NCBI GenBank assembly: GCA_963575745.1
Contig: CAUYUJ010000194.1
Coordinates: 62,001 to 116,984, forward strand
Source: Prorocentrum cordatum
Taxonomy: Eukaryota
Length of the DNA stretch: 54,984 bases
Reading direction: 5' to 3'
Below, one piece after another: positions 15,931-46,699 of the stretch (positions are counted from its first letter, which is position 1; each line of letters opens with the position of its first letter). Under the pieces are notes generated by a model. That model made no database searches. It saw only the letters and a program-made list of their open reading frames with translations, and was not told the origin of the DNA. A program made the translations under genes and the position numbers.

Positions 15931-18900
15931 CTGGGAGCCGGCGGTAAACCGTCAACCAGTTACCACCGGGAGCCTCGTAGAGCTCTTTTCGTGCGGGGCT
16001 ACCCGGTACACATTAAGGGAGTTTTCTTCAAGATTTCTATGCGAAAGAGCTCTCAAGCTCATCTGGAGCTCGAGTAAAGTAGAAAAAACACCTGTTCCAA
16101 CAAAAATCGGTCGCATACGAATAGTGTTGCGGATCTAGCTCGGGTAGCAGACTGTGTTCAGGGCTCTAGATGCTCAGCCGAACGCCCCTGATGATTCTCG
16201 ATCGGTATCCGTGCGTCCTAGCTCTGCAACTCTGCTACAGTTTCAGTTAAGTACAGAAGACCGACAGCGCCTGCAAAGAGAACTTGAAGCGAATAGTTTT
16301 GCGGACCTAGCTCGGTAGCAGACCGAGTTCAGACCGCTCGATGCAACAGACGGACGCGCCTAATGATACAGAATCCTATCATGTGCGTACCAGCTCTGTA
16401 GCTATTCTAGATCGTGAGTTAAGTACAGAAAACCAGCAGCACTTGTTAAAATGACTCGAAGAATACGAATAGATTTGCGGACCCTGCTCGAGCAGCAGAC
16501 CGAGTTCAGAGCTCTCGATGGGAGAGACGAACGCGCCTGAAGATTCTGAATCGGTTCCTGTAAGCATCAGCTCTGTAGCTGTCCTAAATCTCGAGGTAAG
16601 TACAGAAAACCGTTAACGCGTGTCAAGATGACTCCAAACGGCCGTCGGTTCCAGCAAGTCTTTTGATAGTAATATTGCAGCTACGGACCTGAGAATTTAA
16701 ATGGCAGACGCGGCACAGCCCACTACAGGTGAGAAAAATACCACTTTCCAAAACGAATTTTCAAATTTCGCACAAAGATTCAAACACCGACCCAAAGTTA
16801 ACACATTGTCTCTTACGGTCGGGTCGGCCAACTGGGCGCCGGCGGTAAACCGTCAACCTTTCTTACCGCCGGGGGACTCGTAGAGCTTCCTGACAGTATA
16901 TAATGTGGGAAAAAACTCCAGAGAACGACTAGTTTTTCAGCCCAAGCGATTTCGGACCTCTCAAGATGACTCTAACAAAAACAAACAAACAGTTTCGCAA
17001 CAGAGTTCGAAAATCAAACCGAGTTCAGACCTCTGAATGCGACAGGCGGACTGACGACTCCGAATCGACTCAGGTGATTACCAGCCCTGCAGCCCCCCTA
17101 CAGCCCGAGTTGAATGCAGAAAACCGACAGCATCTCTCAGGATGACTCGAATAATACAATAGTTTCGCGGACCTAGTTCGAGCAGCAGGTCGAGTTCCAA
17201 GTTTTAGGTTCGACGGACAGACGCGCCTGATGTGTCCGAATCGATTTCTGTGACCAGCAGCACTGTAGCCCTCTCCCAGCACGAGTTGAGTGCAGAAAAT
17301 TGAGAGCACTTCTCAAGATGATTCCGAGAATACGAATAGCTTCGCGAACCTAGCTCGGGCAGCAGGCCGAGTTCAGATCTCTCGATTCAACAGACGAAAG
17401 CGCCTGATGACTCCAATCGATTTCTGTGACTATGAGCTCTGTAGCTGCCCTACAGCTCGAGTTAAGTACCGAAAACCGAGAGCGTCTGTCAAGATGACTC
17501 GAATAATACAAATAGGTTTGCGGACCTAGCTTGGCTAGCAGACCGAGTTCAGACCTCTGGATTCAACAGGCGAGCGCGCCTGATGATTCTGAATGCGATA
17601 GGTGTGCTGACCAGCTCTGTAGCTGCCCTACAGCTCGAGTTAAGTACAACGTACTGACAACGCGTATGAAGATGACTCGAAACGGTCGATCCCGCCTGCC
17701 TGCTTTTCGGCAGTAAAAGGTACCCGATCGAGCTGAGATCAAGATGGCGAGCGGGAATAAGATCGAATATCACGGGAAAGAATACTAGAGCTCTAACGAA
17801 TGGTTGAATTTCGAGAACAAAATTTTCAACCGACCAAAGGTCACCAAAAGGTCCGTCGAGATGTTTCTTGCCAACTAGCTCTCCAGCGCCCCGGAACTGG
17901 GCGCCGGCGGTAAACCGTCAACTTTTCTTACCGCCGGGGGACTCGTAGAGCTTCCTGACAATATATAATGTCGAAAAAAATTGCGGAGAACGAATAGTTT
18001 TTCAGCCCAAGCGATGTCAGACCTCTCGATGCAACAGCCGAACGCCTCCCGATGCTTCTGGATTGTCTTCTGTACGAGCTCTGTAGCTCTCCTACAGCCG
18101 CAGTTACGTGCGTCAATCGACAGCATCTCTCAAGATGACTCGAACAAAACGAATAGTTTGGCAACCCCAGCTCGAGTATCAGACCCAGTTAAGACCTCTG
18201 AATGCGACAGGCGGACGCGTCTGATGTGTCCGAATCGATTCCTGTGATTACCAGCCCTGCAGCCACCCTACAGCCCGAGTTAAGTGTAGAAAGCCGACAG
18301 CATCTTTCAGGATGACTCGAACAATACGAACAGTTGCGCGGACCGAGTTCGGGCAGGAGACCGAGTTCCGAGCTCTGGATTCCACAGGCGGACGCGTCTG
18401 ATGTCTCCAAATCGATTGCTCCCACCACCAGCACTCTAGCCTCCCTACAGCCCAAGTTAAGTGCAGAAAACCGACAGCACCTCTCAAGGTGACTCGAACA
18501 ATACGAACAGTTTCGCGATTATCGATCGGGCAGCAGACCGAGTTCAGAGCTCTGGATTCAACAGAGAAACGCGACTGATGATTCTGAATCGGTTTCTGTA
18601 AGTATCAGCTCTGTAGCTGTCCTTTAGCTCGAATTAAGTACAGAAAACCGAAAGCGCCTGTCAAGATGACTCGAATAATACGATTAGGTTTGCGGACCTA
18701 GCTCGGCTAGCAGACCGAGTTCAGACCTCTGGGTTCAACAGGCGAACGCGCCTGATCATTCTGCATCGATTGGCTGTGCTTACTAGCTCTGTAGCTGTCC
18801 TGAAGCTCGAGTTATCTCGATAAAACCGACAGCGCGTATCAAGATGACTCGAAACGGCCGATGCCTGCTTTTTGGCAGTGAAAGTGACCCGATCGAGCTG

Positions 18901-21234
18901 AGATCAAGATGGTGAGCGGGAATAAGATCGAATATCACGGGAAAAAATACTAGAGCTCTAACGAATGGTCAAATTGTGAGAACAAAAATTTCAACCGACC
19001 AAAAGTCAGCAAAAGGTCCGTCGAGATTTTCCTTGCCAACTGGGCGCCGTCGGTAAACCGTCAACCTTGGTTACCGCCGGGAAACTCGTAGAGCTTCCTA
19101 GCTCGACTTAAGTTGAGAAAACCGACAGCACCTGCCAACATTCCGACTCATAGTGAATATGTTTTGACTTCTGAATGCGACAGACGAACGCGTCTGGTGT
19201 CTGCGAATCGACTCCTGTTATTACCAGCCCTGCAGCCCCCCTACAGCCCGAGTTAAGTGCAGAAAACCGACAGCACCTCTCAGGATGACTCGAACAATAC
19301 AGTAGTTTCGCAAACTTAATTCGGGCAGCAGACCGAGTTCCGAGCTCTGGATTCGACAGGCGAACGCACCTGATGTCTTGAAATCGATTCCTGTGACGAC
19401 CAGCACTGTAGCCCCCCTCAGCGCGAGTTGAGTGAAGAAAACCAAGAGCACTTCTCAAGATTTGCGATTCCAGATCGGGCAGCGGACCGAGTTCAGAGCT
19501 CTGGATTCGACAGACGGGTGCGCCTGATGTCTTGAAATCGATTCCTCTGATTACCAGCACTGTAGCCCCGCTCAGCGCGGGTTGAGTGAAGAAAACCGAG
19601 AGCACTTCTCAAGATAACTCGACCAATACGAATAGTTTTGCGATTCAAGATCGGGCAGCAGACTGAGTTCAGAGCTCTGGATTCGACAGACAAACGCAAC
19701 TGATCATTCTGGATCGGGTTCTGTAAATATCAGCTCTGTAGCTCTTCTACAGCTCGAGTTAAGTACATAAAACCGAGAGTTTCTGTCAAGATGCCTTGAA
19801 TAATACGAATAGGTTTGCGAATCTAGCTCGACTAACAGACCGAGTTCAGACCTCTGGCTTCAACAGGCGAACGCGCCTAATCAATCTGCATCGATTAGCT
19901 GTGCTTACCAGCTCTGTAGCTGTCCTAAAGCTCGAGTTATGTTCAGAAAACCGTCAGCGCGTATCAAGATGACTCAAAACAGCCGATCCCGCCAGAGTGC
20001 TTTTCGATAGTAATTTCACCCGATCGAGCTGAGATCAAGATGGCGAGCGGGAATAAGATCGAATATCACGGGAAAAAATACTAGAGCTCTAACGAATGGT
20101 CAGATTTCGAGAACATAATTTTCAACCGACCAAAAGTCAGCAAAAGTTCCGTCGAGATTTTTCTTGCCAACTGGGCGCCGGCGGTAAACCGTCAACCTTG
20201 GTTACCGCCGGGAGACTCGTAGAGCTTCCTAGCTCGACTTAAGTTGAGAAAACCGACAGCACCTACCAACATTCCGACTCATAGTGAATTGTTTTTAACC
20301 TCTGAATGCGAAAGGCGGACGCGTCTGATGTCTGCGAATCGACTCCTGTCATTAACAGCCCTACAGCTTCCCTACAGCCCGAGTTCAGTGCAGAAAACCG
20401 ACAGCGTCAGAATGACTCGAAAAATACAATAGTTTCGCAGACCTGATTTGGGCAGCAGACCGAGTTCCGAGCTCTGGATTCGACAGGCGGACGCGCCTGA
20501 TGTCTTCAAATCGATTCCTGTGACCACCAGCACTGTAGCCCCCCTCAGCGCGAGTTGAGTGAAGAAAACCAAGAGCACTTCTCAAGATGACTCGACCAAT
20601 ACGAATAGTTTCGCGATTCTAGATCGGGCAGTAGACCGAGTTCAGAGCTCTGGATCCGACAGACGAACGCGCCTATTCCCAATCGATTTCTGTGACTATA
20701 AGCTCTGTAACTGCCCTATAGCTCGAGTTAAGTTCAGAAAACCGAAAGCGTCTGTTAAGATGACTCGAATAATACGAATAGTTTTGCGGACCTAGCTCGG
20801 CTAGCAGACCGAGTTCAGACCTCTGGATTCAACAGGCGAACGCGCCTAATCATTTTACATCGATTAGCTGTGCTTACCAGCTCTCTAGCTGTCCTAAAAC
20901 TCGAGTTATGTTCAGAAAACCGTCAGCGCGTATCAAGATGACTCAAAACGGCCGATCCCGCCAGCGTGCTTTGATAGTAATATTCACCCGATCGAGCTGA
21001 GATCAAGATGGCAAGCGGAACTAAGATCGAATATCACGGGAAAAAATACTAGAGCTCAAACGAATGGTTGAATTTCAAGAACAAAATTTTTAACCGACCA
21101 AAAGTCAGCAAAAGTTCCGTCGAGATTTTTCTTGCCAGCTAGCTCTCCAGCGCGCCGGAATTACTCTAAGCTTCCAGCAATAACTTGCTAAGGGAAGCTC
21201 TACGAGTTACTAGCTCTCCAGCGCGCGGGAATTA
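15931..21234 (-). mobile_element. Run of Helentron-like elements (hairpin heads at 15931 type B, 16832, 17897, 19040, 20171)
   Basis: Each starts with the hairpin plus subterminal IR and is interrupted near its far end by the next. 20171..21208 is complete, and its host (19040) resumes at 21209 actagctctcc. Confidence 0.72.
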
Positions 21235-22920
21235 CTGGGCGCCGGCGGTAAACCGTCAACCTTGGTTACCGCCGGGGAACTCGTAGAGCTTCCTGACAGT
21301 ATATAATATATAAGAAAAATCCAGAGAACGACTAGTTTTTGAGCTCAAGCGATTTCAGACCTCTCCAGATGACTAACAGAAGAAGAAAAAGTTTGCCAAC
21401 CCAGCTCGAGTATCAAACCGAGTTCAGACCTCTGAATGCGACAGACGGACGCGCCTAATGTCTGCGAATCGACTCCTGTGATTACTAGCCCTGCAGCCCC
21501 CCTACAGCCCGAGTTAAGTGCAGAAAACCGACAGCATGACTCGAATAATACAATAGTTTGGCGAACCTAGTTCGAGCAGCAGACCGAGTTCCGAGCTCTC
21601 GATTCGACAGACAGGCAGTTCTGATGTCTCTAAATCGATTTATGTGACCAGCAGCACTGTAGCCCTTCCCAAGCACGAGTTAAGTGCAGAAAACCGAGAG
21701 CACTCAACAAGATTACTCGAACAATACGAATAGTTTCGCAAACCTAGCTTCGGCAGCAGGCCGAGTTCAGAGCTCGATTCAACAGACGAACGCGCCTAAA
21801 GAATCCCAATCGATTTCTGTGACTATGAGCTCTGTAGCTGCCCTACAGCTCGCGAAAAGTACAGAAAACTGAGAGCGTCTGCTACAATGACTCGACTAAT
21901 ACGAATAGGTTTGCGGACCTAGCTCGGCTACCAGACCGAGTTCAGACCTCTGGATTCAACAGGCGAACGCGCCTAATCATTCTACATTGATTAGCTGTGC
22001 TTACCAGCTCTATAGCTGTCACAAAGCTCGAGTTATGTTCAGAAAACCGACAGCGCATATCAAGATGACTCAAAACGGCCGATCCCGCCAGAGTGCTTTT
22101 CGATAGTAATATTCACCCGATCGAGCTGAGATCAAGATGGCGAGCGGGAATAAGATCGAATATCATGGGAAAAAATACTAGAGCTCTAACGAATGGTCAA
22201 ATTTCGAGAACAAAATTTTCAACCGACCAAAAGTCAGCAAAAGTTCCGTCGAGATTCTTCTTGTCAACTGGGCGCCGGCGGTAAACCGTCAACCTTTCTT
22301 ACCTCCGGGGGACTCGTAGAGCTTCCTGACAGTATATACTGTGGAAAAAACTCCAAAGAACGACTAGTTTTTCAGCCCAAGCGATTTCAGACCTCTCAAG
22401 ATGACCCTAACCAAAAAACAAACAGTTTCGCAACCCAGTTCGAGTATCGAACCGAGTTCAGACCTCTGAATGCGACAGGCGGGCGCGTCTGATGTCTGTG
22501 AATCCACTCATGTGATTCACAGCCCTGCAGCTCCTCTACAGCCCGAGTTAAGTGGAGAAAACCGACAGTATCGACTCGAATAATAGAATAGCTTCGCGGA
22601 CCTAGTTCGAGCAGCAGACCGAGTTCCGAGCTCTGGAATCGACCAACAGACGCGCCTGATGTGTGCAAATCGATATCTGTGACCCGCAGCACTGTAGCCC
22701 TCCCCCAGCACGAGTTGAGTGCAGAAAATTGAGAGCACTTCTCAAGATGATTCGGACAATACGAATAGTTTCGCGAACCTAGCTCGGGCAGCAGGCCGAG
22801 TTCAGAGCTCTCGGTTCAATAGACGAACGCGACTGATGATTCCCCATCGATGTCTGTGACAATGAGCCCTGTAGCTGCCCTACAGCTCGAGTTAAGTACA
22901 GAAAATCGAGAGCGTCTGTC

Positions 22921-23460
22921 AAGACGACTCGAATAATACGAATAGGTTTGCGGACCTAGCTCGGCTAGCAGACCGAGTTCAGACCTCTGGATTCAACAGG
23001 CGAACGCGCCTGATAATTCTGAATGCGATAGGTGTGCTTACCAGCTCTGTAGCTGCCCTACAGCTCGAGTTAAGTACAGAAAACCAAGAGCGTCTGTCAA
23101 GACGACTCGAATAATACGAATAGGTTTGCGAACCTAGCTCGGCTAGCATACCGAGTTCAGACCTCTGGATTCAAGAGGCGAACGCGCCTGATAATTCTGA
23201 ATGCGATAGGTGTGCTTACCAGCTCTGTAGCTGCCCTACAGCTCGCGTTAAGTACAGAAAACCGAGAGCGTCTGTCAAGACGACTCGAATAATACGAATA
23301 GGTTTACGGACCTAGCTCGGCTAGCAGACCGAGTTCAGACCTCTGGATTCAACGTGCGAGCGCGCCTCATAATTCTGAATGCGATAGGCGTGCTTACCAG
23401 CTCTGTAGCTGCCGTACAGCTCGAGTTAAGAACAAAATACCGACAACGCGTATTAAGATG
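22921..23460. repeat. 178-bp tandem repeat, representative homogeneous stretch of the elements' central repeat
   Basis: aagacgactcgaataatacg starts at 22921, 23099 and 23277. Related monomers fill nearly all type-A bodies. Confidence 0.95.
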
Positions 23461-23716
23461 ACTCGAAACGGCTGTTCCCGCCGAGACGCTTTTTGGCAGT
23501 AAAATGTACCCGATCGAGCTGAGATCAAGATGGCGAGCGGGAATAAGATCGAATATCATGGGAAAAAATACTAGAGCTCTAACGAATGGTTGAGTTTCGA
23601 GAACAAAATTTTGAACCGACCAAAAGTCACCAAAAGGTCCGTCGAGATTTTTCTTGCCAACTAGCTCTCCAGCGCTCCGGAATTACTGGGCGCCGGCGGT
23701 AAACCGTCAACCTTTG

Positions 23717-24934
23717 TTTTTTTTTTGGGGGGGGAGGCTGACCAGGCACCGAGCGCCCCAGCGCCCGTTAAGTGCCTACCTAGTCTCTCTGCAGCTGGAG
23801 GTCTTGGGCCACCTGGGCTGCGGCCCGCAAGAGGCCCTCGAGACCCGAAAGCTCAGCGTCAGTGATACTGCTATGGGAGGGGAGTGCCTGTGCACAACGC
23901 CCTACTACTTCCCATATGATTGGACAAGGAGAGGAGGCTTGGGGGAAGAGGGAGACTACACGAGCTCTCTTATCTCTATGTTCAGGGTCAGGGTACGGAT
24001 CATGGAAACGAGGGATATATCCAATCTGCAGAAACCAACCAACGCCCACACCTTGGGCACACACTCCGCCATCGAAGGATCCGCGGAGGCCGATAACTCG
24101 AAAGTTGTCTTGAACATCAGGACGGAAGATATGGTGGTGGAACAGCTCTCTGAATATCTGGCCTTCCCGTGCTAGATGGGTAAGTTCATCAGCTACTGTA
24201 TTACTCTCCCGATATATGTGTCGAATAAAGTCATTGCCCCATGAGGGGGGTCGTACTCCTTCCTCCTCCAATTCTTCCAAAAGAGAAATAATATTTGCAA
24301 CCCGCCTACGATAAGAAGCCCCATCTCCTCCTTCTCCTCCTTCAACCTTCCAGAGACCGTTGATCCAATTACAGATAAGAAGCGAATCGCCCGTCAGCTC
24401 CAGACCGATCCCATCATCACTCAGATCCCAAGTCGGCTCCTGTTCATTGTTCGAGGCCAATCTCTGGGCCAGCTTCTCAGACTCCTTCACCGACAACGGA
24501 CGGGCCATCATCTCCTCCCCCCTCTCCTTTATGTAGTTTCCTCGTCCTCCAGTTCCTCCACGGACAACAAACAAGTCAAACAGAGAACCCAAAGTACAAG
24601 CTTCCAGGAACTGCCTGCAATACTGAACGAAGTCAGAGTAAGAGAAAGAGCACGCCCTCCACCACCGATCCTCCAGATTCACAAACGAGGGAAATATCGT
24701 CTGGAACATGAAACACCAAGGATGTTCACCCGTCGCCTGCCCCTTAGCACTGCCTAATCGTGTCAGTTTCGAGGCCTCCTTCCACTTCCACTGGGAACGC
24801 AAACATTCTGACTCAAGTGTCCTTTTCTCCTCCCACCTCGGGGTACAACACATCAGAAGCCGACGTGCGTCTCGATGCGCTCGAGGAAACACCGTCTGTT
24901 GTCCAGGTCCAGGAACTGCCACCCTCCGACGCTT
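23717..24934 (-). mobile_element. Non-LTR retrotransposon copy C, heavily 5'-truncated
   Basis: ccgtcaacctttg followed by T10 (23717-23726). Right junction at cgggggactcgtagag with target accgc missing. Encodes only the post-RT region and RNase H-like domain. Confidence 0.9.
23780..24934 (-). pseudogene. 3' fragment of LINE ORF2 (permuted RNase H-like domain)
   Basis: RDARR, WD, LELTGDSLLICNW, HIYRESNTVADEL, SFDGG, DAEL align with the other three copies. The track's N-terminal residues (24935-24985) come from the flanking repeat. Confidence 0.85.
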
Positions 24935-26260
24935 CGGGGGACTCGTAGAGCTTCCTGACTCGTAGGGATGTGAGAAAAAATCCAAAGAACGACTATTTTT
25001 TCAGCCGAAGCAATTTCAGACCTCTCAAGATGACTCTAACAAAAAAACAAACACCTCCAATAATACAATAGGTTCGCGGACCTAGTTCGAGCAGCAGACC
25101 GAGTTCCGAGCTCTGGGTTCTTCGACAGACAGACGCGTCTGATGTCTCAGAATCGATTTCCGTGACCAGCAGTACTGTAGCCCTTTCCAGCACGAGTTAA
25201 GTGCGGAATACCGAGAGCACTTCTCAGAATAACTCGAACAATACAAATAGTTTTGCGAACCTAGCTCGGGCAGCAGGCCGAGTCCAGAGCTCTCGATTCG
25301 ACGCACGAACGCGTCTGATGATTCCCAATCGATTTCTGTGACTATGAGCTCTGTAGCTGCCCTAGAGCTCGAGTTCAGTATAGAAAACCGAGGGCGTCTA
25401 TGAAGATGACCAAAATGATACGAATATGTTTGCGGACCTAGCTCGGCTAGCAGAACGAGTTCAGACGTCTAGATTCAACATGCGAACGCGCCTAATGATT
25501 CTGAATGCGATAGGCGTGCTTACCAGCTCTGTAGCTGTCATTTAGCTCGAGTTAACTACACAGAACCGAGGGCGTCTATCAAGATGACCCAAATAATACC
25601 AATAGGTTTGCAGACCTAGCTCGGCTAGCAGACCGAGTTCAGACCTCTAGATCCAACAGGCGAACGCGGTTAATGATTCTGAATGCAATAGGTGTGCTTA
25701 CCAGCTCTGTAGCTGTCCTGTAGCTCGAGTTAAGTACAGAGAACCGAGGGCGTCTATCAAGATGACCCAACTAATATCAATAGGTTTGCAGACCTAGCTC
25801 GGCTAGCAGACCGAGTTCAGACCTCTAGATACAACAGGCGAACGCGGTTAATGATTCTGAATGCAATAGATGTGCTTAACAGCTCTGTTTCTGATCTACA
25901 GCTCGAGTTAAGTACAAAATACCGATACCGCGTATCAAGATGACTCGAAACGGCCGATCCCGCCAGAGTGCTTTTTCGCAGTAAAAGCTACCCGATCGAG
26001 CTGAGATCAAGATGGCGAGCGGGAATAAGATCGAATATCACGGGAAAAAATACTAGAGCTCAAACGAATTATTGAATTTCGAGAACAAAATTTTCAACCG
26101 ACCAAAAGTCAGCAAAAGTTCCGTCGAGATTTTTCTTGCCAACTAGCTCTCCAGAGCGCCGGAACTGGCGCCGGCGGTAAACCGTCAACCTGGTCACCGC
26201 CGGGAACCTCGTAGAGCTCCTTCCACGGGTGAGAGTGCTTAGAATCGACAGAGAGAGCTT

Positions 26261-27366
26261 AACTGGTAGAGGTTCCCTTAGCAAGTTATTGCTGGAAGCT
26301 TAAGACTAATTCCGGGGCGCTGGAGAGCTAGTTGGCAAGAAAAATCTCGACGGACCTTTTGCTGACATTTGGTCGCTTGAAAATTTTGTTCTCGAAATTC
26401 AACAATTCGTTAGAGCTCTAGTATTTTTTCCCATGATATTCGATCTTATTCCCGCTCGCCATCTTGATCTCAGCTCGATCGGGTAACTTTGAAGGCCAAA
26501 AAGCAGGCAGGCGGGAACGGCCGTTTCGAGTCATCTTGATACGCGCTGTCGGTTTTCTCAAGATAACTCGAGCTTCAGGACAACTACAGAGCTGGTCAGC
26601 ACAGCTAATGCATTCAGAATGATCAGGCGCGTTCGCCTGTTGAATCCAGAGGTCTGAACTCGGTCTGCTAGCCGAGCTAGGATCGCAAACCTATTCGTAT
26701 TATTCGAGTCATTGTAGCAGACGCTCTCGGCTTTTCGTACTTAACTCGATCTGTAGGGCAGCCACAGAGCTGATAATCACAGAAATCGATTGAGAATTAT
26801 CAGGCGCGTTGGTCTGTTGAATCAAGAGCTCTAAACTCGGCCTGCTCCCCGAGCTAGGTTCGCGAACATTGGTATTGTTCGAGTCATCTTGAGAAGTGCT
26901 CTCGGTTTTCTGTATTTAACTCGTGCTGGGGAGATCTATAGTGCTGCTGGTCACAGGAAACGATTTCGAGACATCAGGAGCGTACGTTGATCGAATCGAG
27001 AGCTCGGAACTCGGTCTGCTGCTCGAACGAGATCCGCGAAACTGTTGTATTATTCGAGTCATCCTGAGAGGTACTCTCGGTTTTTTGCACTTAACTCGGG
27101 CTGTATGGGGGGCTGCAGGGCTGGTAATCACAGGAATCGATCCGAAGACATCAGACGCGTCCGCCTGTCGCATTCAGAGGTCTGAACTCGGTTTCATACT
27201 CGAGCTCGATTGGAAAACTGTTCGTTTGTTTTGTTAGAGTCATCTTGAGAGGTCTATAATCGCTTGGGCTGAAAAAATAGTCGTTCTCTGAAATTATTTC
27301 CCACATTATATATTGTCAGGAAGCTCTACGAGTAAGAAAGGTTGACGGTTTACCGCCGGCGCCCAG
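26261..27366 (+). mobile_element. Inverted Helentron-like element (type A) inserted into a type-B element
   Basis: Flanks gagagctt| and |tctgg rejoin as gagcttctgg (compare ~50253-50263), with one T duplicated. The hairpin has lost most of one arm (27333). Confidence 0.78.
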
Positions 27367-30300
27367 TCTGGAAGCATTTCGGGAAAAAGGGCAAATTTGT
27401 GTTTTTGCATGTCGATATGAAATTGGTTCCGCCAAGTGTTTTGATAGTAAATGTGCGCCTACAGAGCCCATGTTAAGACGCAGAGGCCCTGATAATCGTT
27501 CACAGGTGCGAAAAATCTGATTTCTCAAAATCAATTGTCAAATATCTTTCAAATCTTAGCAAAACTGGACGCCGGCGGTAAACCGTCAACCTTGGTTACC
27601 GCCGGGAGACTCGTAGAGCTTCCAGCTCGACTGAAGTTGAGAACACCGAGCACCTACCAACATTCCGACTCACAGTGAATATTTTGTGACCTCTCAATGC
27701 GACAGGCGGACGCGTCTGATGTCTGCGAGTCGACTCCTGTCATTACCAGCCCTGCAGCCCCCCTACAGCCCGAGTTGAGTGCAGAAAACTGACAGCATCT
27801 CTCAGGATGACTCGAACAATACAGTAGTTCTGCAGACCTAATTCGGGCAGCAGACCGAGTTCCGAGCTCTGGATTCGACAGGCGGACGCGTCTGATGTCT
27901 TCGAATCGATTCCTGTGACCACCAGCACTGCAGCTCCCCTCAGCGCGAGTTGAATGGAGGAAACCGAGGGCACTTCTCAAGATGGTTCGACCAATACGAA
28001 TAGTTTCGCGATTCTAGATCGGGCAGCAAACCGAGTTCAGAGCTCTGAATTCGACAGACAAACGCAAATGATGATTCTGAATCGGTTTCGGTAAATATCA
28101 GCTCTGTAGCTGTCCTACAGCTCGAGTTAAGTACAAAAAACTTAGATTTCCTGTTAAGACGACTTGAATAATACGAATAGGTTTGCAGACCTAGCTCGGC
28201 TAGCAGACCGAGTTCAGACCTCTAGATTCGACATGCGAACGCGCCTGATGATTCTGGATGCGATAGGTGTGCTTACCAGCTCTGTAGCTGCCCTGAAGCT
28301 CGAGTTATGTTCAGAAAACCGTCGGCGCGTATCAAGATGACTCAAAACGGCCGATCCCGCCAGAGTGCTTTTTGACAGTAATATTCACCCAATCGAGCTG
28401 AGATCAAGATGGCGAGCGGGAATAAGATCGAATATCACGGGAAAAAAAAATAGAGCTCTAACGAATGGTTGAATTTCGAGAACAAAATTTTGAACCGACC
28501 AAAAGTCAGCAAAAGTTCCGTCGAGATTTTTCTTGCCAACTGGGCGCCGGCGGTAAACCGTCAACCTTTCTTACCGCCGGGGGACTCGTAGAGCTTCCTG
28601 ACAGTATATAGTGTGAAAAAATCCAAAGAACGACTAGTTTTTCAGCCCAAGCGATTTCAGACCTCCCAAGATGACTCTGACCAAAAAAAGAAACAGTTTC
28701 GCAACCCAGTTCGAGTATCGAACCGAGTTCAGACCTCTGAATGCGACAGGCGGGCGCGTCTGATGTCTGCGAATCCACTCATGTGATTACCAGCCCTGCA
28801 GCTCCCCTACAGCCCGAGTTAAGTGCAGAAAACCGACAGTATCGACTCGAATAATAGAATAGTTTCGCGGACCTAGTTCGAGCAGCAGACCGAGTTCCGA
28901 GCTCTGGAATCGACCAACAGACGCGCCTGATGTGTGAAAATCGATATCTGTGACCCGCAGCACTGTAGCCCTCCCCCAGCACGAGTTGAGTGCAGAAAAT
29001 TGAGAGCACTTCTCAAGATGATTCGGACAATACGAAAAGTTTCGCGGACCTAGCTCGGGCAGCAGGCCGAGTTCAGAGCTCTCGGTCCAATAGACGAACG
29101 CGACTGATGATTCCCCATCGATGCCTGTGACAATGAGCCCTGTAGCTGCCCTACAGCTCGAGTTCAGTACAGAAAACCGAGAGCGTCTGCCAAGACGACT
29201 CGAATAATACGAATACGTTTGCGGACCTAGCTCGGCTAGCAGACCGAGTTCAGACCTCTGGATTCGACAGGCGAACGCGTCTGATAATTCTGAATGCGAT
29301 AGGTGTGCTTACCAGCTCTGTAGCTGCCCTACAGCTCGAGTTAAGTACAGAAAACCGAGAGCGTCTGTCAAGACGACTCGAATAATACGAATAGGTTTGC
29401 GGATCTAGCTTGGCTAGCAGACCGAGTTCAGACCTCTGGATTCAACGGGCGAACGCGCCTGATAATTCTGAATGCGATAGATGTGCTTACCAGCTCTGTA
29501 GCTGCCCTACAGCTCGAGTTAAGAACAAAATACCGATAACGCGTATCAAGATGACTCGAAACGGCCGTTCCCGCCGGGACGCTTTTTGGCAGTAAAATGT
29601 ACCCGATCGAGCTGAGATCAAGATGGCGAGCGGGAATAAGATCGAATATCACGGGAAAAAATACTAGAGCTCTAACGAATGGTTAAATTTCGAGAACGAA
29701 ATTTTCAACCGACCAAAAGTCACCAAAAGGTCCGTCGAGATTTTTCTTGCCAACTAGCTCTCCAGCGCTCCGGAATTACTGGGCGCCGGCGGTAAACCGT
29801 CAACCTTTCTTACCGCCGGGGGACTCGTAGAGCTTCCTGACAGTATATAGTGTGGGAAAAAATCCAGAGAACGACTAGTTTTCAGCCCAAGCGATTTCAG
29901 ACCTCTCAAGATGACTCTAACAAAAAACAAACAGTTTCGCAACCCAGTTCGAGTATCAGACCGAGTTCAGACCTCTCAATGCGACAGGCGGACGCGTCTG
30001 ATGTCTGCGTATCGACTCATGTGATTACCAGCCCTGCAGCCGTCCTACAGCCCGAGTTAAGTGCAGAAAACCGACAGCATCTCTCAGGATGACTCGAATA
30101 ATAGAAAAGTTTCGCGGACCTGTTTCGAGCAGCAGACCAAGTTCTCAGCTCTCGAATCGACCAACGAACGCGACTGATGTGTGCAGATCGATTTCTATGA
30201 CCCGCAGCACTGTAGCCCTCCCCCAGCACGAGTTGAGCACGAGTTCAGAGCACTTTCCACGATGATTCGAACAATACGAATAGTTTCGCGGTTCTAGCTC

Positions 30301-31109
30301 GGGCAGCAAGCCGAGTTCAGAGCTCTCGATACAACAGACAAACGCGCCCGATAATTTCCAATCGATTTCTGTGACTATAGGCTCTGCAGCTGCCCTACAG
30401 CTCGAATTAAGTACAGAAAACCGAGAGCGCTTGTCAAGATTACTCGAATAATACGAATAGATTTGCGGACCTAGCTCGGCTAACAGACCGACGTCAGACC
30501 TCTGGAGTCGAGAGGCGAACGCGCCTGATGATTCTGAATGCGATAGATGTGCTTACCAGCTCTGTACCTGCCCTGCAGCTCGAATTAAGTGCAAAATACC
30601 CACCACGCATATCAAGTTGACTCTAATAATACGAATAGATTTGCAGACCTAGCTCGGCTAGCAGACCGAGTTCAGACCTAGGGATTCAACAGCCGAACGC
30701 GCCTGATGATTCTGAGTGCGATAGGTGTGCTTACCAGCACTGTAGCTGCCCTACAGCTCGAGTTAAGTAGAGAATACCGACAACGCGTATCAAGTTGACT
30801 CGAATAATACGAATAGGTTTACGGACCTAGCTCGGCTAGCAGACCGAGTTCAGACCTATGGATTGAACAGGCGAACGCGCCTGATGATTCTCAGTGCGAT
30901 AGGTGTGCTTACCAGCACTGTAGCTGCCCTACAGCTCGAGTTAAGTTGAAAATACCGACAGCGCGTATCAAGATGACTCGAAACGGCCGTTCCCGCCGGG
31001 ACGCTTTTTGGCCTTCAAAGTTACCCGATCGAGCTGAGATCAAGATGGCGAGCGGAAATAAGATCGAATATCATGGGAAAAAATACTAGAGCGCTAACGA
31101 ATGGTCAAA

Positions 31110-32576
31110 CTGGGCGCCGGCGGTAAACCGTCAACCTTTCTTACCGCCGGGGGACTCGTAGAGCTTCCTGACAGTATATAGTGTCCGAAAAAATCAGAGA
31201 ACCACTAGTTTTCAGCCCAAGCGATTTCAGACCTCTCAAGACTCTAACATAAAAAGAAACAGTTTCGCGACCCAGTTCGAGTAACAGGCCGAGTTCAGAC
31301 CTCTCAATGCGACAGGCGGACGCGTCTGATGTCTGCGAATCGTCATGTCATTACCAGCCTTGCAGCCCCCCTACAGCCCGATTTAAGTGCAGAAAACCGA
31401 CAGTATCTCTCAGGATGACTCGAATAATACAATAGTTTCGCAAACCTGTTTCGAGCAGCAGACCAAGTTCTGAGCTCTCGAATCGACCAACGAACGCGTC
31501 TGATGTGTGCAAATCGATCTATGACCCGCAGCACTGTAGCCCTACCCCAACACGAGTTGAGTGCAGAAAAATGAGAGCACTTTTCACGATGATTCGGACA
31601 ATACGAATAGTTTCGCGAACCCATCTCGGGCAGCAGGCCGAGTTCAGAGCTCTCGATACAACAGACAAACGCGCCCGATAATTCCCAATCGATTTCTGTG
31701 ACTATAGGCTCTGTAGCTGCCCTACAGCTCGAGTTAGTACAGGAAACCGAGAGCGTAGAGCGTTTGTCAAGATGCCTCGAATAATACGAATAGATTTGCG
31801 GACCTAGCTCGGCTAGCAGACCGAGTTCAGACCTCTCGAGTGAAGAGGCGAACGCGCCTGATGATTCTGAATACGATGGATGCTTACCAGCTCTGTAGCT
31901 GCCCTGCAGCTCGAATTAAGTACAAATACCCACCACGCGTAAGAAGTTGACTCGAATAATACGAATAGGTTTGCGGAGCTAGCTCGGCTAGCAGACCGAG
32001 TTCAGACCTATGGATTCAACAGACGAACGCGCCTGATGATGCTCAGTGCGATAGGTGTGCTTACCAGCACTGTAGCTGCCCTGAAGCTCGAGTTAATTAG
32101 AAAATATCGATAACGCGTATCAAGTTGACCCAAATAATACGAATAGGTTTGCGGACCTAGCTCGGCTAGCAGACCGAGTTCAGACCTCTGGAATCAACAG
32201 GCGAACGCGCCTGGTGATTCTGAGTGCGATAGGTGTGCTTACCAGCACTGTAGCTGCCCTACAGCTCGAGTTAAGTAGAAAATACCGACAGCGCGTATCA
32301 AGATCACTCGAAACGGCCGTTCCCGCCGGGACGCTTTTTGGCAGTAAAAGGTAACCGATCGAGCTGAGATCAAGATGGCGAGCGGGAATAAGATCGAATA
32401 TTATGGGGAAAAATACTAGAGCTCTAACGAATGGTGAAATTTTGAGAACAAATTTTTCAACCGACCAAAAATCACCAAAAGGTCCGTCGAGATTTTCCTT
32501 GCCAACTAGCTCTCTAGCGCTCCGGAATTACTCTCAAGCTTCCAGCAATAACTTGCTAAGGGAAGCTCTACGAGTT
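31110..32576 (-). mobile_element. Complete innermost Helentron-like element of the nest
   Basis: Flanks ggtcaaa| and |attttgaaaacaaa rejoin as the normal tail ggtcaaattt.gagaacaaa. Confidence 0.8.
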
Positions 32577-33055
32577 ATTTTGAAAACAAATTTTTCAACC
32601 GACCAAAAGTCACCAAAAGGTCCGTCGAGATTTTTCTTGCCAACTAGCTCTCCAGCGCTCTGGAATTACTCTTAAGCTTCCAGCAATAACTTGCTGAGGG
32701 AAGCTCTACGAGTTACTCTCAAGCTTCCAGCAATAACTTGCTCAGGGAAGCTCTACGAGTTACTAGCTCTCCAGCGTCCCGGAATTACTCTAAAGCTTCC
32801 AGCAATAACTTGCTAAGGGAAGCTCTACGAGTTACCGACCGAAAGTTGTCACATTGTCTCGTCTAGTCGGGTCGGCCAACTAGCCCCACCCCGCGCCGGA
32901 ATTCCTCTAGCTCATCGATGCCGAAGAGCTCTACGAGGTATTACTCTAAGCGTCCAGCTATAACTTGCTGAGGGAAGCTCTACGAGTTACTCTCAAGCTT
33001 CCAGCAATTACTTGCTAAAGGAAGCTCTAAGTACTAGCTCTCCGGCGCGCCGGAA
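32520..33055. repeat. Stack of element termini (short hairpin modules ending gaagctctacgagtt or gagctctacgaggt)
   Basis: Seven terminal motifs in ~530 bp. Similar stacks at 43990-44185, 46305-46430, 47355-47535, 52450-52710 and 53745-53865. Confidence 0.85.
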
Positions 33056-35429
33056 CTGGGCGCCGGCGGTAAACCGTCAACCTTGGTCACCGCCGGGGAA
33101 CTCGTAGAGCTTCCTACCTCGACTTAAGTTGAGACAACCGATTGCACCTACCAACATTCCGACTTACAGTGAATATTTGTTGACCTCTGAATGCGACAGG
33201 CGGACGGGATGTCTGCGAATCGACCCCTGTCATTACCAGCCCTGCAGCCCCCCTACAGCCCGAGTTAAGTGCAGAAATTCGACAGCACCTCTCAGAATGA
33301 CTCGAACAATACAATAGTTTCGCGGACCTAGTTCGGGCAGCAGACCGAGTTCCGAGCTCTGGACTCGAAAGGCGGACGTGCCTGATCTCTTCAAAGCGAG
33401 TACTGTGACAACAAGCACTGTAGCCCCCCTCAGCGCGAGTTGAGTGAAGAAAACCGAGAGCACTTCTCAAGATGACTCGACCAATACGAATAATTTCGCG
33501 ATTCTAGATCGGGCAGCAAACCGAGTCCAGAGCTCTAGATTCGACAGACAAACGCAACTGATGATTCTGAATCGATTTCTGCAAGTATCACCTCCGTAGC
33601 TGTCCTATAGCTCGAGTTAAGTACAGGAAACCGAGAGCGTCCGTCAAGATGACTCGAATAATACGAATATGTTTGCGAACCTAGCTCGGCTAGCAGACCG
33701 AGTTCAGACCTCTGGGTTCAACAGACGAACGCGCCTGATCATTCTAAATCCATGAGCTGCTTACCAGCTCTGTAGCTGCCCTGAAGCTCGAGTTATCTCG
33801 AGAAAACCGTCACCGCGTATCAAGATGACTCGAAACAGCCGATCCCGCCAGAGTGCTTTTTGGCAGTAAAAGGTACCCGATCGAGCTGAGATTAAGATGG
33901 CGAGCGGGAATATGATCGAATATCACGGGAAAAAATACTAGAGCTCTAACGAATGTTCAAATTCCGAGAACAAAATTTTCAACCGACCAAAAGTCACCAA
34001 AAGTTCCGTCGAGATTTTTCTTGCCAACTGGGCGCCGGCGGTAAACCGTCAACCTTTCTTACCGCCGGGGGACTCGTAGAGCTTCCTGACAATATATAAT
34101 GTGGAAAAGAATTTCAGAGAACGACTAGTTTTTCAGCCCAAGCGATTATAGACCTCTCAAGATGACTCTAACAAAACAAACGAACAGTTTTCCAATCGAG
34201 CTCGAGTATGAAACCGAGTTCAGACCTCTGAATGCGACAGGCGGACGCGTCTGATGTCTGCGGATCGATTCCTGTGATTACCAGCTCTGCAGCCCCCCAT
34301 ACAGCCTGAGTTAAAGTGCAGAAAACCGAGAGTACCTCTCAGGATGACTCGAATAATACAACAGTTTCGCGGATCTCGTTCGAGCAGCAGACGAGTTCCG
34401 AGCTCTCGGTTCGACGAACGGACGCGCCTGATGTCTCGAAATCGATTCCTGTGACCAGCAGCACTGTAGCCCCCCCCAGCACGATTTAAGTACAGAAAAC
34501 CGAGAGCACTTCTCAAGATGACTCGAACAATACCAATAGGTTCGCGAACCTAGCTCGGGGAGCAGGCCGAGTTCAGAGCTCTTGATTCAACAGACGAACG
34601 CGCCTGATAATTCTCAATCGATTTCTGTGATTATCAGCTCTGTGGCTGCCCTACAGATCGAGTTAAGTACGAAAAACCGAGAGCGTCTGCTACAATGACT
34701 CGAAGAATACGAATAGGTTTGCGACCCTAGCTCGGCTAGCAGACCGAGTTCAGACCTCTGGATTCAACAGGCGAACGCGCCTGATCATTCTGAATGCATT
34801 AGCTGCTGACCAGCTCTTAGTTGTCCTGAAGCTCGAGTTATCTTGAGAAAACCGACAGCGCGTATCAAGATGACTCGAAACGGCCGTTCCCGCCTGTGCT
34901 TTTTGGCCTTCAAAGTTACCCGATCGAGCTGAGATCAAGATGGCGAGCGGGAATAAGATCGAATATCATGGGAAAAAATACTAGAGCTCTAACGAATGGT
35001 CAAATTTCGAGAACAAAATTTTCAACCGACCAAAAGTCAGCAAAAGGTCCGTCGAGATTTTTCTTGCCAACTAGCTCTCCAGCTCCCCGGAATTACTCTT
35101 AAGCTTCCAGCAACTGGGCGCCGGCGGTAAACCGTCAACCTTTCTTTTTGCGGCTTTGCGAGGCTCCTACTGGCCCTAGGGCCACGAGCAAGCATGAGGT
35201 CAGGTGTCATCAGGAAGCGAAAGCTCTTATTCGAACCTAAAGTCAAGACAACCCAGAGCAGCGAAGCTGCGATGAATCATCAATCACAAATATGAGCGAA
35301 CGAGCAAACGCACACAGAAATGAATCAAAGTGCAGTCAACTAAACATGCAAGAGAAAAGAGAAGTCCCAGCGAAAGCTGAGTAAATCATAGTATGAGGAA
35401 GAACAGTGAAATAAGAAAAACTGCAACTA

Positions 35430-38400
35430 TCAAGTCTGTGATAACCATAGAACTGCCTGTGGGAGCGCAGTCACGATGCACTCCAAAGCACTGAGTTCTG
35501 TATCAGTAACAGTTGTGGTCGGAGAAATAAGCCAAGCCCTCTCAAAAACTGACTTCCATATCAGCTGAGCGGGGTCCCGTCGATCCCAATACCGAGGTTT
35601 GAGGCCTATGTCTATCCAGCAACCGCACCCACATCCCTCAGACGACACGCCGCCATCGAAACCAGCCCGAATAGCAGCAGCAACGTAAAATTCTGTCTCA
35701 TAATCATGTGTATACGGACTACATTCTGAACTAGAAATCTGGCCCTCTCGGGCCTGGTGTGTTAGAACGTCGGCACGAGTGTTCCACTCCCGAAAATCAT
35801 GACGAATAAGATCCATACCCGGCGCTGGAGGTCGTATATTATAGCTGCAACAAAGCCCATCAAGCGTATTGATAATTTTTGATATTCTATCCGCATATGA
35901 TCTATTATCTGCACGCCACCGTCCCGTAGCCCAGCTAACCACGAGAAGCGAGTCACCCACCACCTCCAGAGGGATTCCAGGGGCCTCCAGGTTCCAACGG
36001 GTTGCTTTCATATTATGAAGAGCGATGCGCTTTGCAAGTTTCTCAGCAGCCATCGGACTATCATCCGTGCTCACCTGGATTTCACCATGCTCGGAGGGCG
36101 CCAAATATGCGGGCGAACTCACAGGTCCGCACGTCGACACCTCCTGGAAACATTGAAGCATGCTATGAGTACAAAGGTGCGTGGCGTATTGCATAAATCC
36201 AAGCTGGGAGCCTGTGAAATGAATCCACCAATCATCTCCGAAAAACTCAGCTAATGTATATTGCCATGATCTCTGTCCAATACTCTCCGTACCTCGACAG
36301 CGACGTTTGTAAGAAGAGGCCTCCGACCAGTTGCCAAAGTGTCTCATCGTCTCGCTCATAAGTGTACGAGTGCGGTCAGTGTACGGTCCAAAACATAAAC
36401 TCGCCATACGGGAATCGCGCCATGTCCTCTCCGCCGCCTTCAAGTCAATCACTTTCTCAACAATCATGCCATTTGCGAAACTTGCAATGTCTTTTGCGAA
36501 ATTCCAGTGCAATATCAGATAACGCTGGACAAGAGAGGAGTACCCAGCCTTCAAGAAACGTTCCCGTGCGACATGATATCTCCTCTGCTGATAAGCTTGC
36601 TCCGTTTCCGTCGGGCCTTTTCGAGAAGAGATCATCATCTTCAGGCATTTCCCTTCGAAGGAATGGAGAAACGAGAGAGTATAAGAATCTGCAGTGGTGG
36701 TCTCCATACCATACAGAGCCAGGCTCTGGACTCTGTCCTGGTATCTCCGCAGCTTATCCTTGAGAGGAATACAGTGCGACCTGAAATACCCTGCCTGAGA
36801 GTAAAATGCGCGACGAGCACAGTCTACGCGAAAAGAAACATCACGATGTACAGAACAGCTATATTCACTATGCAGCTGCGTGCCCAGTACGTCCATAGAA
36901 ACAACTCTACGGTAACATAACTCATCAATCTGCTGCACTGCATTCCTCCCGTCACATGCATCTGAGAAGATCGGTATTTTAAGATCCATCGAACGCGGGA
37001 TATTCCCGTCCTCATCCAAGACAGCAGGAGCTCCGCACACCATGTACTTCAGCGATGTGGGTTTCCATCGCATCGAGAAGTTGTAAAGTGGAAGTGTCAA
37101 GTCTCTTACCATACGAGTAAGCTCCTCACGGCTACGACTGACGAGGTACACGTTATCTGCCCAGATAAAATGATTCACCACCGACCGATGCTCCGTACCG
37201 AAATCTACCGCATACCCCATGCCCTGAACGTCCCAATTATGAATAACGTCACCCCACATGGCAGCAATAATGAGGTTAAAGCCCAAGGGCCCTTCTGGGC
37301 CTCCAGTCCTAATACAGGTGTCCCACTGGATGTTATCAATCTCCAACCCGTCATAGTAGAGGCAGCCCGTGCTGTGCGATAACGGATCCAGAAACGCGTG
37401 CTGTAAATACGCAGGGACACGTGCATGCTCAAGACCCTTATGAACGTTCTGTATCGTGCAGTTGTCAAAGGCCTGGTATATGTCCATGTCCGCAACGTAC
37501 AGACACTCACGCTTCCCCCACTTGTCCCCGTGCATACACATGTTAGTAAGGCTACTCGTGATATGGGATGTGCTGTGACCCTGACGGAACCCATAGAGGC
37601 CCAGAGGATGAAATAGCTTAGACTCTTCCACATGCTGCTCCACCAGGATAACTACGCACGCCGAGAACCAGCGAGTTATGCTATTCTGTAAGCACAAGAG
37701 TCGAGCATCCGCCAAGTTCGTGATCCCCTTTAGTTTAGGCATGTATGCAATGAGAATGTCCCTCCATCGAACAGGGTACTGGACAACCAGCCTCAAAAGA
37801 GAGTCGAAGATCTGTTGGATGTGCCGAACTGTGCACCATGGGAGAAGCTTGAGCATTTCACAAGGTACGCGATCCGGTCCTGTTGCCCGTCGCGTTCGAA
37901 GACGAGCCCTCGCTGCACAACATATCGACATCGTAATACTTCGAATGATCTGGCCACCCTTGATCTCCTCCTCCGCCTTCCTCCTGATTTCCTCCATCAA
38001 GTTGCTGTTCTCCTCCCTCCTACGCTGTGATGTCACCTTCCCCTTAACATGCTCCTCCAACTTCTCCTTCAAGATATATCTATCCTCCGTCTCCCATCCA
38101 TCAACCACCACATGTTTGATACGATGTCGAATCTTACGACGAGTCGGGGGTACAGCCCATTCAAGAAGATCACGCCGATACTGTCTCCTCCAAACATTGG
38201 CAGCTGCTCTGAGTCTCTTTTTCTCTGGACCATTCTGAAGGGACCGAATCCGCTCTTCGAGACGTGTGAGCTCGGGCGGGCGAGTAGGCGCTGGAGGCCG
38301 GGCAGCTGAGGCCGTGGAGTAATCCACATCCTCCTGCGTAAATGCTTTCAAAATGACAGGAGCGGTCTCTGTCACGTCCTGTGGTCGTGTCGACGCAGCT

Positions 38401-40823: not shown

Positions 40824-40917
40824 GAAGAATTACGATATGCACCTCAGGCTCTGCTGATCACTACCGCTGGCCTTGGCGGAGGTAGCCCAGGCAGGACAAA
40901 GTCAGCGGCTCCGTGAC

Positions 40918-40940
40918 CTTGAGCCGACACGCCTTGAGCC
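40918..40940 (-). other. Tandem dinoflagellate spliced-leader-like relics at the 5' end of LINE copy D
   Basis: Minus strand GGCTCAAG-GCGTGTC-GGCTCAAG. The DinoSL ends CCATTTTGGCTCAAG, and relics recur with a 15-nt period. Confidence 0.65.
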
Positions 40941-46355: not shown

Positions 46356-46699
46356 ATTACTCTTAAGCTTCCAGCAACTAGCCACGGGAAGCTCTACAAG
46401 TTACTTGCTGAGAGAAGCTCTAGGAGTTACTCGCCCGAGCCGGCAGCGGGTCCAGGACAGCTTCCCGCTAGAGCCCACGCGTGCTGCTCGCGTGCAGGCA
46501 CGCGAGGGGGCGTTCCTGGCAGCGCTTCGGAGGCGCTGCAGGGGAGCCCCCCAGAGCCGCAGAAGCGCTTCCCGAGAGCGTTCGACGGCTCGCCAAGAAA
46601 GCTTTCCGGCTTGTCTCCCCTTTGCTCTCCGGGTTTGGGACGCTGCCATTCTTGCCAACTAGCTCTCCAGCGCCCCTGGAACTTGGTGGCGTCCACTTG

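Follow-up and report, generated by a model that had tools for sequence, protein, structure and literature searches.

A satellite-like array of putative HINE-like transposons in Prorocentrum cordatum, probably built by nested same-strand insertion near resident 5' ends

How does an array that looks like a satellite of about 1.1-kb units come to be built: by tandem amplification, or by units that repeatedly enter one another? The question is raised by a contig of the eukaryote Prorocentrum cordatum (CAUYUJ010000194.1, GenBank assembly GCA_963575745.1), in which a stretch of 54,984 nt (positions 62,001 to 116,984 of the forward strand), here called the window, is rich in related repeat units of two types, A and B. 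Judged by their structure, these units appear to be non-autonomous rolling-circle-type transposons of the Helitron2/Helentron kind, resembling HINE and DINE-1-like elements. A sequence-only reading of the part from 21235 to 33055 had described eight elements in exact last-in-first-out nesting, and had ascribed the array to self-targeted transposition.

The region 21150-33140 was read, and every head (CTGGGCGCCGGCGGTAAACCGTCAACC, the plus-strand start of a unit) and every end (..GGAAGCTCTACGAGTT, its plus-strand end) was mapped across the window. At each junction, the 25 nt lying 5' of the head and the sequence past the paired end were aligned to the uninterrupted ends of other copies. The seven junctions listed in the sequence-only reading have exactly the head and end coordinates given there, and all seven align straight across: the host end is restored once the inner block and one A are removed, and dropping that single A raises the alignment score by 2 in every case. 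Restoration is gapless at six of the seven, the remaining junction (26165/32939) having a 1-nt indel that lies 6 nt off the junction and also occurs as a copy-to-copy variant. Measured from the host end, the insertion sites lie, from the innermost junction outward, at 137, 46, 71, about 106 (in a B-type host), 49, 46, and 71 nt. On the right, the pieces form the mirror image of this left-hand order of site types, which is one of 1260 distinct orders, and the sole B-subfamily head in the nest (26165) is paired, at the level where it belongs, with the sole B-subfamily end (32939). Chance does not account for this nesting, which is real. Beyond these seven, six more junctions restore gaplessly; for one of the six, the reference was reconstructed from the flanks of the junction itself. 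Another three junctions are restored with small gaps. The parts of the nest are listed in Table 1.

Some of the original description needs narrowing. Exact last-in-first-out order applies to the inner seven junctions and to parts of a sister nest, but outside these the array is rearranged. Seven chained insertions are present, but the outermost of the eight elements, with its head at 21235, does not end at 33055 as had been described; a head at 33056 interrupts its further piece (33033-33055) at the 49-nt site, and the final 49 nt of the element were not found in the window. The seven chained insertions do share one orientation, but the nest also holds an inverted A-type copy (26261-27367), the only opposite-orientation insertion in the window. 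Counted by left-hand junctions, the chain is 11-13 elements deep.

Insertion leaves a constant signature. An A precedes 31 of 31 plus-strand heads, and an A comes after 38 of 38 plus-strand ends. For one B-type copy, B2, an empty site has survived as an inverted paralogue: the flanks of B2 (50949-50993 and 51540-51584), joined minus one A, are identical to 50020-50140 at 89 of 90 positions. Because the inverted duplication keeps the empty site, B2 must have inserted after the duplication took place. Insertion adds the element and one A (a T in the canonical orientation of the units, described below) and creates no other duplication. This extra base had been taken for a duplicated A; one extra A does stand at each junction, but it can be read just as readily as a T brought in by the element, and the two options, the element's first base or a 1-nt duplication, fit equally well. 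A head-to-tail pair at 3649/3651 shares a single A, which fits a T as the first base of the element.

The common explanation of long Helitron arrays is that they are rolling-circle concatemers (Xiong, Dooner and Du 2016, as cited in PMC5148889, PMC12001565, and PMC11934779), which are stated to be head-to-tail with inner copies truncated at the 3' end (PMC7492417, in the part available). That usual explanation lends some plausibility to an origin without transposition, through concatemers, unequal crossing-over, segmental duplication, or an assembly artefact, as do a 2.3-kb duplication at 98.7% identity in the window, inverted duplications, and the loss of some closing pieces. The array also resembles concatemers in being long, one-directional, and satellite-looking. 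Concatemers, however, predict head-to-tail joins, and a plain head-to-tail join is found at only 1 of 33 head junctions; unlike concatemers, the units are interrupted near their 5' end and closed in reverse order, and neighbouring units are 5-20% different and come from different subfamilies. Neither recombination nor misassembly would be expected to mirror the order of seven sites, to match the B head with the B end, to add one A each time, or to leave an empty site, and we regard an origin of this sort as very improbable. The restored junctions and the empty site instead bear out the proposal that elements repeatedly entered resident copies of their own kind, in the host's orientation and close to one terminus, and so formed the array, and the junction count agrees with the further claim that it did not arise by head-to-tail tandem duplication. 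A classical satellite, considered separately as an identity for the units, was rejected on the junction count and on the divergence of neighbours.

The anatomy of the units matches that of HINE elements, which sets their canonical orientation as the minus strand of the window. On the plus strand, the end of a unit is the reverse complement of a 15-mer located 45 nt inside its start. In canonical orientation, a unit starts with T-AACTCGTAGAGCTTCC; the final bases of this 5' subterminal inverted repeat form a predicted 5' hairpin with a GGAAGC located 17 nt further on (positions 11-41; z = -3.4, with 0 of 200 shuffles folding as well). The 15-nt repeat itself (ACTCGTAGAGCTTCC) sits 1-2 nt from the 5' end, and its complement stops 44 nt short of the 3' end. 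At the 3' end, the inverted copy GGAAGCTCTACGAGT is followed by a hairpin with a 10-bp stem (CCGGCGGTAA..TTACCGCCGG) and then by CGCCCAG-3', giving element termini of 5' TAACTCGTAGAGC... and 3' ...CGCCCAG, with the palindrome stopping 7 nt before the 3' end. Of 29 copies, 26-29 preserve any given pair of the 3' stem, and one pair shows a compensatory change from AU to GC in five B copies. B copies also carry a matched variant of the inverted repeat (ACCTCGTAGAGCTC / GAGCTCTACGAGGT). The core of a unit consists of 2-5 repeats of 176-178 bp, and restored copies measure 972-1468 bp, the exceptions being E22 (718 bp, internally deleted) and E1 (2074 bp). Matching this anatomy to HINE also identifies the targeted end, which had been described as the far, non-hairpin terminus: insertions do lie near that end, but it is the canonical 5' end and has a hairpin of its own.

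HINE and DINE-1-like elements are the non-autonomous partners of Helentrons (Thomas, Vadnagara and Pritham 2014, PMC4067079) and, in the available part of that account, have 12-15 bp subterminal inverted repeats located 2-4 nt from the 5' terminus and about 38-60 nt from the 3' terminus. The units share the diagnostic features of this group: subterminal inverted repeats, a 3' palindrome with a nested 5' inverted repeat, insertion at T or TT with no target-site duplication, and a non-coding body with central tandem repeats. No Pfam domain was found in the seven open reading frames of the nest, the units being non-coding, and no Rfam family was found in the window. As far as the accessible text of both accounts goes, the units are like HINE and the oyster element Cg_HINE (PMC4067079, PMC7492417) in the inverted repeat nested in the 5' repeat, the 3' palindrome, the satellite-like centre, the T flanks, the lack of target duplication, and the lack of coding capacity. 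Their ends also fit the summary of Helitron2/Helentron ends in the parts of PMC5148889 and PMC13085455 consulted. Insertion within TT is not strict here, since 3 of 21 host sites have a single T. Unlike the elements in the available portions of the HINE and Cg_HINE accounts (PMC4067079, PMC7492417), those described here show ordered self-nesting and a preference for resident 5' ends; the oyster elements are portrayed as dispersed and in both orientations (PMC7492417). In a collection of contigs, the element head was found at three short loci in metagenomes, and at none in genome contigs or viral contigs. One of the metagenome heads lies at the 49-nt site of a host end and another lies 21 nt past an end.

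Four units contain copies of a long interspersed nuclear element (LINE) with matches to the reverse transcriptase domain RVT_1, all in the same orientation as the units, and the units could on that ground be seen as passengers of this LINE, similar to short interspersed nuclear elements (SINEs) and moved by reverse transcription. The LINE copies carry A-tails, variable 5' truncations, and a 10-bp target duplication or small target deletions, whereas the nested units have exact ends, a single extra base, and no A-tail, and the LINE 3' ends have no sequence in common with the 3' end of the units. Mobilization by the LINE is therefore hardly credible. A non-long-terminal-repeat retrotransposon or SINE identity of the units was likewise rejected, since the units have exact ends and one extra base and the retrotransposon traits belong to the LINE copies inside them.

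Where the units insert was established by classifying the host sequence beside every head; one head lying in a 98.7% segmental duplicate was excluded, which leaves 33 independent junctions. At 24 of these, the head lies 28-137 nt from a resident 5' end (18 in A-type and 6 in B-type hosts). Of the 30 cases in which orientation can be read, 29 agree with the host. Most junctions across the window agree with the insertion distance and orientation given in the sequence-only reading. Insertions recur at single nucleotides. A-type hosts were entered six times at 71 nt, four times each at 49 and 46 nt, three times at 28 nt, and once at 137 nt, and in the homologous zone of B-type hosts three events lie at 61 nt and three at about 92-106 nt. 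In A-type hosts, 18 of 19 events fall on the same strand within the first 150 nt, a concentration with P <= 6e-8 under every both-strand motif null and P = 2e-11 under a same-strand RRT[TA] null.

The target step is equally regular. Among 21 sites with both flanks, read in canonical orientation, position -2 is A in 17, -1 is G in 14 (A in 5), +1 is T in all 21, and +2 is T in 17, giving the consensus A-G/T-T (the slash marks the cut) with GCTAG/TTGG as the best site. The element's own 3' junction is CAG/T, and the 5' junction after insertion is mostly AG/T-AACTCG. A single cleavage rule, AG/T, accommodates both ends of the element as well as the target, which is what a single HUH nuclease would be expected to need.

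A strand-specific preference for AG/TT-like steps (best GCTAG/TTGG) could by itself place insertions near 5' ends, without any recognition of a terminus, if clustering merely followed the location of the motif. The motif GCTAG/TTG(G or C) covers A-type site 71 (six events), the homologous B-type site 61 (three events), and, as a variant, site 28; two insertions, at CAAG/TTCCCGG and GCAG/TTTGG, are remote from every 5' end (about 400 and 526 nt); and AGTT is scarce on the canonical strand of the body, with 26 sites in 21 copies. Over these 21 copies, the canonical strand has 59 AGTT sites, 33 in the first 150 nt and the 26 elsewhere, and the other strand has 299, none of which was used. This asymmetry means that motif distribution can explain part of the regional bias. 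It explains neither the choice of strand nor the clustering of hot spots that lack AGTT. The recurrent sites 46 (GAG/TAA), 49 (TAA/TTC), and 137 (AAA/TTT) do not have the long motif and still lie in the zone, and the concentration persists under a loose same-strand motif that covers all events (the P = 2e-11 null above). None of the nine AG/TT-type events used an opposite-strand AGTT (P = 9e-8), for which targeting by motif alone would need a separate explanation. We consider such targeting, as a full account, rather unlikely.

HUH nucleases use single-stranded targets, and a bias of replication or transcription that leaves one strand single-stranded, as for bacterial IS200/IS605 elements, would give a shared orientation whatever the termini. 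The 29 of 30 cases in one orientation agree with such a bias, as do the hosts and inserts that are inverted together in 47700-49900, a pattern that also follows from inversion after nesting. Strand bias would account for orientation. Why insertions crowd into the 140 nt next to the 5' end, and why they recur at the same nucleotide in diverged hosts, it leaves unexplained; it is quite unlikely to be the main cause.

The predicted single-strand fold of the 5' zone places site 28 at the apical loop and sites 46 and 49 in the unpaired linker past the 5' hairpin. Site 46 lies 6-7 nt beyond the 5' hairpin and ends in AG/T, and the true 3' cut lies 7 nt beyond the 3' hairpin. One idea is that the modeled 5' hairpin mimics the 3' hairpin at site 46, where four events are available.

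The explanation we judge most probable is that HINE-like units, served in trans by a Rep/helicase, are steered to resident 5' ends and inserted at same-strand AG/T-like steps, which produces a recursive last-in-first-out chain. In outline, a trans-acting HUH Rep/helicase transposase would nick single-stranded DNA at AG/T and would recognize the top strand of a resident 5' end through its inverted repeat and hairpin. This recognition would steer integration to nearby AG/T-like steps on the same strand. Each insertion would split the 5' zone of its host, making the newest copy the best remaining target, and recursion would yield a deep last-in-first-out chain that mimics a satellite of about 1.1 kb. 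Self-targeted transposition is supported by the junctions; transposase docking on a resident end, the probable cause named in the sequence-only reading, is putative.

Several observations weigh against this explanation. An autonomous partner would share the termini and encode a Rep/helicase, plus an AP endonuclease in Helentron proper; no Rep or helicase gene was found in the window, and membership of the family is assigned from structure. Of the 33 events, three have an unreadable host and five lie outside the zone: about 230, 400, and 526 nt from a 5' end, in a repeat body (E23, head 42623), and, in opposite orientation, near a 3' end. All the statistics come from one window that was picked for its oddity and are to be read as descriptive. 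Events at recurrent sites are not uniquely pairable from their flanks alone. For the nine AG/TT-type events, the regional excess reaches only P = 0.005, 33 of the 59 canonical AGTT sites already lying in the first 150 nt. The closing pieces of the outer hosts E8, E9, E11, and E19 (237 nt in all) are absent, and past 46428 the right flank is rearranged, with GC-rich repeat units in both orientations. Finally, the matches in four public sequencing runs are Logan unitigs of about 60 nt with very high summed depth, too short to show long-range order or any single junction of the stack, and no piece among those listed spans the stretch.

Those four runs are among 20 that hold parts of the stretch, many of them aquatic metagenomes. 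In all 15 joints listed for the four runs, an element terminus meets either an internal position of a 5' region or a second terminus. The joint between the 71-nt site and a head occurs in 6, 2, 3, and 1 contigs of the respective runs, and that between an A-type end and the B-type 61-nt site in 8, 5, 0, and 1. The joints, whose shorter side spans 19-30 nt, weakly support the use of the same sites genome-wide.

A more far-reaching version, which we put forward tentatively and consider somewhat doubtful, is that an intact resident 5' end may serve as a landing pad, the transposase docking there and inserting tens of bases downstream on the same strand. The family would home to itself as a safe haven and could form satellite-like, possibly heterochromatic or centromeric, arrays without unequal crossing-over, and the array would in turn be the niche of a LINE clade that targets the 3' hairpin.

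Pre-nested blocks can also move as one piece, as two composites indicate. In each of them the 5' and 3' ends derive from different copies, and the host hot spot is restored with one extra base. The first lies within the sister nest (Table 1); the second (47726-49780) consists of the copy M2 and the 3' part of the B copy in which M2 sat. Their structure points to transposition that started at a 5' end and read through the first 3' end, of which such composites are the expected outcome. Read-through of the 3' end is the classical route of sequence capture by Helitrons. Chimeric transposition across nested termini has been drawn for the Fusarium elements discussed below (PMC5148889, in the part seen).

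The existence of these composites means that an inner copy is not always a later one, and the data depart here from the sequence-only reading, which had taken the order of nesting as a relative chronology of subfamilies and had asked whether inner copies are closer to their consensus. Subfamilies interleave along the nest with no gradient of divergence. Divergence from consensus, measured in head and end regions, is 5.3-16.9% and trendless along the nest, and terminal branch lengths (0.011-0.068) show no trend from outer to inner copies. The closest pair of copies is still about 3% apart. The nest was probably built quickly relative to its present age, by co-active subfamilies. As to whether an insert is copied from its own host, host and insert differ only slightly less than random pairs do (0.120 and 0.139, permutation P = 0.05). 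The nesting height of 10 in a 20-element tree has P = 3e-4 under uniform choice of host and P = 0.004 if hosts are usable twice, subject to the caveat of the single odd window.

The closest precedent is provided by FoHeli1 and FoHeli2, Helitron2 elements of Fusarium oxysporum with multiple 5' termini. Their first 31-85 nt are repeated in short pieces (<200 bp) that give up to five 5' termini, and the authors infer self-insertion into the 5' region in the same orientation (PMC5148889, PMC13342296, both in part). As in FoHeli, short 5' pieces are stacked before a copy in one orientation here: the seven pieces in 32577-33032 measure 43-138 nt (again <200 bp), and further stacks of 5' pieces lie at 46356-46428, 47405-47534, and 52512-52731. 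The available sections of the Fusarium accounts (PMC5148889, PMC13342296) report only 5'-end stacks on a single 3' end, whereas here the rest of every host, body and 3' end, is preserved as well, in last-in-first-out order and to a depth of eight levels (11-13 by left-hand junctions). Unlike FoHeli, the units are also non-coding and satellite-bearing and have recurrent single-nucleotide hot spots. Nested and shuffled Helitron loci are mentioned in general terms in the accessible part of PMC12628747. No description of deep, ordered self-nesting of Helitron-type elements was found in full-text literature searches; supplementary tables of termini may hold closer parallels.

Partial parallels exist among bacteria. 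HUH insertion sequences (IS608/IS200-IS605 and IS91) cause no target duplication, cleave next to a motif akin to their own end, and use strand-specific single-stranded targets, and some other insertion sequences (IS30, IS911) insert beside resident ends. Unlike these bacterial elements, the units described here are eukaryotic and far larger, and they insert at several positions in a zone of about 140 nt instead of at a single tetranucleotide.

How Helitron2/Helentron transposases choose their targets is poorly understood. Same-orientation self-insertion in the first ~140 nt offers a second route to Helitron satellite arrays, giving a ~1.1-kb 'satellite' many levels deep. With the hot spots, an AG/T(T) step that matches the element's own 3' junction, and the two read-through composites, both the rule of cleavage and what the 5' end contributes become directly testable. 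The multiple 5' termini of Fusarium were explained by a process inferred there; here that process can be read directly from the DNA. For annotation, arrays of this kind are better parsed as brackets than as tandem repeats.

Table 1. Coordinates of the nest and of associated features in the window
Feature	Coordinates	Strand	Details
E18, innermost, complete	31110..32576	-	1467 bp; 3' hairpin end at 31110, 178-bp-repeat core, 5' end at 32576
E17, main part	29779..31109	-	Cut by E18 137 nt from 5' end; 5' piece 32577-32714
E16, main part	28540..29778	-	Cut by E17 46 nt from 5' end; 5' piece 32715-32761
E15, main part	27565..28539	-	Cut by E16 71 nt from 5' end; 5' piece 32762-32833
E14, B subfamily	26165..27564	-	Head CTGGCGCC, end GAGCTCTACGAGGT; cut by E15 about 106 nt from 5' end; 5' piece 32834-32939; also holds the inverted copy
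E13, main part	23686..26164	-	Cut by E14 49 nt from 5' end; 5' piece 32940-32988; 3' hairpin split by LINE fragment
E12, main part	22268..23685	-	Cut by E13 46 nt from 5' end; 5' piece 32989-33032, terminus degenerate
E11, outermost of the eight	21235..22267	-	Cut by E12 71 nt from 5' end
Last-in-first-out stack	32577..33055	-	Seven 5'-terminal pieces (ends 32714, 32761, 32833, 32939, 32988, 33032) and the 23-nt E11 piece
Inverted A-type copy	26261..27367	+	Opposite orientation within E14, about 96 nt from E14 3' end
LINE fragment	23716..24930	-	5'-truncated, A-tail, in E13 3' hairpin
LINE copy	4942-7712	-	
LINE copy	9895-14942	-	
LINE copy	35146-40937	-	
Left outer continuation	15931..21234	-	Heads 15931, 16832, 17897, 19040, 20171
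Sister sub-nest	33056..46428	-	E19 contains E20, which contains E21 (with LINE); inside E21, composite 41951-45271 and E26 (45295-46355); closing pieces 45272-45294, 46356-46402, 46403-46428
Composite	41951..45271	-	Single insert at the 71-nt site of E21; E25, 31-nt foreign flank (44183-44213), and E22, which itself holds nested B and A copies
Inverted block	47700..49900	+	M1 5' piece 47700-47724, M2 47726-49237, 3' part of B copy 49239-49780, rest of M1
B2, B-type copy	50994..51538	-	545 bp; empty site kept as inverted paralogue 50020-50140

The four LINE copies occupy the same position, in the 3' hairpin of the element directly after the stem arm CCGGCGGTAA, and each has a short A-tail. One copy is flanked by a 10-bp target duplication (TCAACCTTGG), and the other three lost about 8 nt of the other stem arm. 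In addition to the RVT_1 match, an AP (apurinic/apyrimidinic) endonuclease-like region, which has no Pfam match, and an RNase H-like tail can be made out by eye. The LINE lineages are only 33-46% identical in protein, which suggests an old clade of site-specific LINEs that parasitize these elements; a large protein search returned four homologues, one of them 50% identical. The 90% cluster of this homologue includes one 76-residue member labelled Pyramimonas sp., a weak lead to origin. In both long LINE copies, ORF1 and ORF2 (open reading frames 1 and 2) lie in the same frame with one TGA between them, at 39420-39422 (CAA TGA CAA) and 14104-14106 (GTG TGA CCG). This single in-frame TGA suggests stop-codon read-through or reinitiation.

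To the left of the nest, the chain continues with five heads that sit, in the order tabulated, at the 28-, 61-, 49-, 71-, and 71-nt hot spots of the preceding copy, and one of these elements, E10 (20171-21208), is complete. To the right, the closings of E21 and E20 in the sister sub-nest fit. Where the closings of the outer hosts would be expected, there are instead GC-rich units totalling about 1 kb and a 21-nt fragment of a B-type end (46429-47426), and the joins 34028/46428, 15931/47534, and 21235/47404 fail to restore a host. A complete element and one stack of 5' pieces lie within a segmental duplication of at least 2.3 kb (45223-47548 / 52660-54984, 98.7% identity) that runs off the end of the window. 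The inverted block that begins at 47700 follows the same insertion rule as the rest. The 25-nt piece 46403-46428 and the inverted piece 47700-47724 have the same outer flank (..CGGGCGAGT), which hints at inverted duplication or recombination.

The GC-rich repeat units (up to 63% GC, roughly 300 bp) occur in both orientations inside B-like elements, at 60-573, 4746-4912, 9001-9865, 46429-47330, and 47535-47699. They carry GGGGGGCCCCCC..GAAGCGCTGCCAGG, and each ends in AGCTCTCCGGGAA, which is itself an insertion site (heads 574 and 44214). At 52343-52511, a 169-bp B mini-copy that contains little beyond the two termini has entered a second B copy at the 61-nt site.

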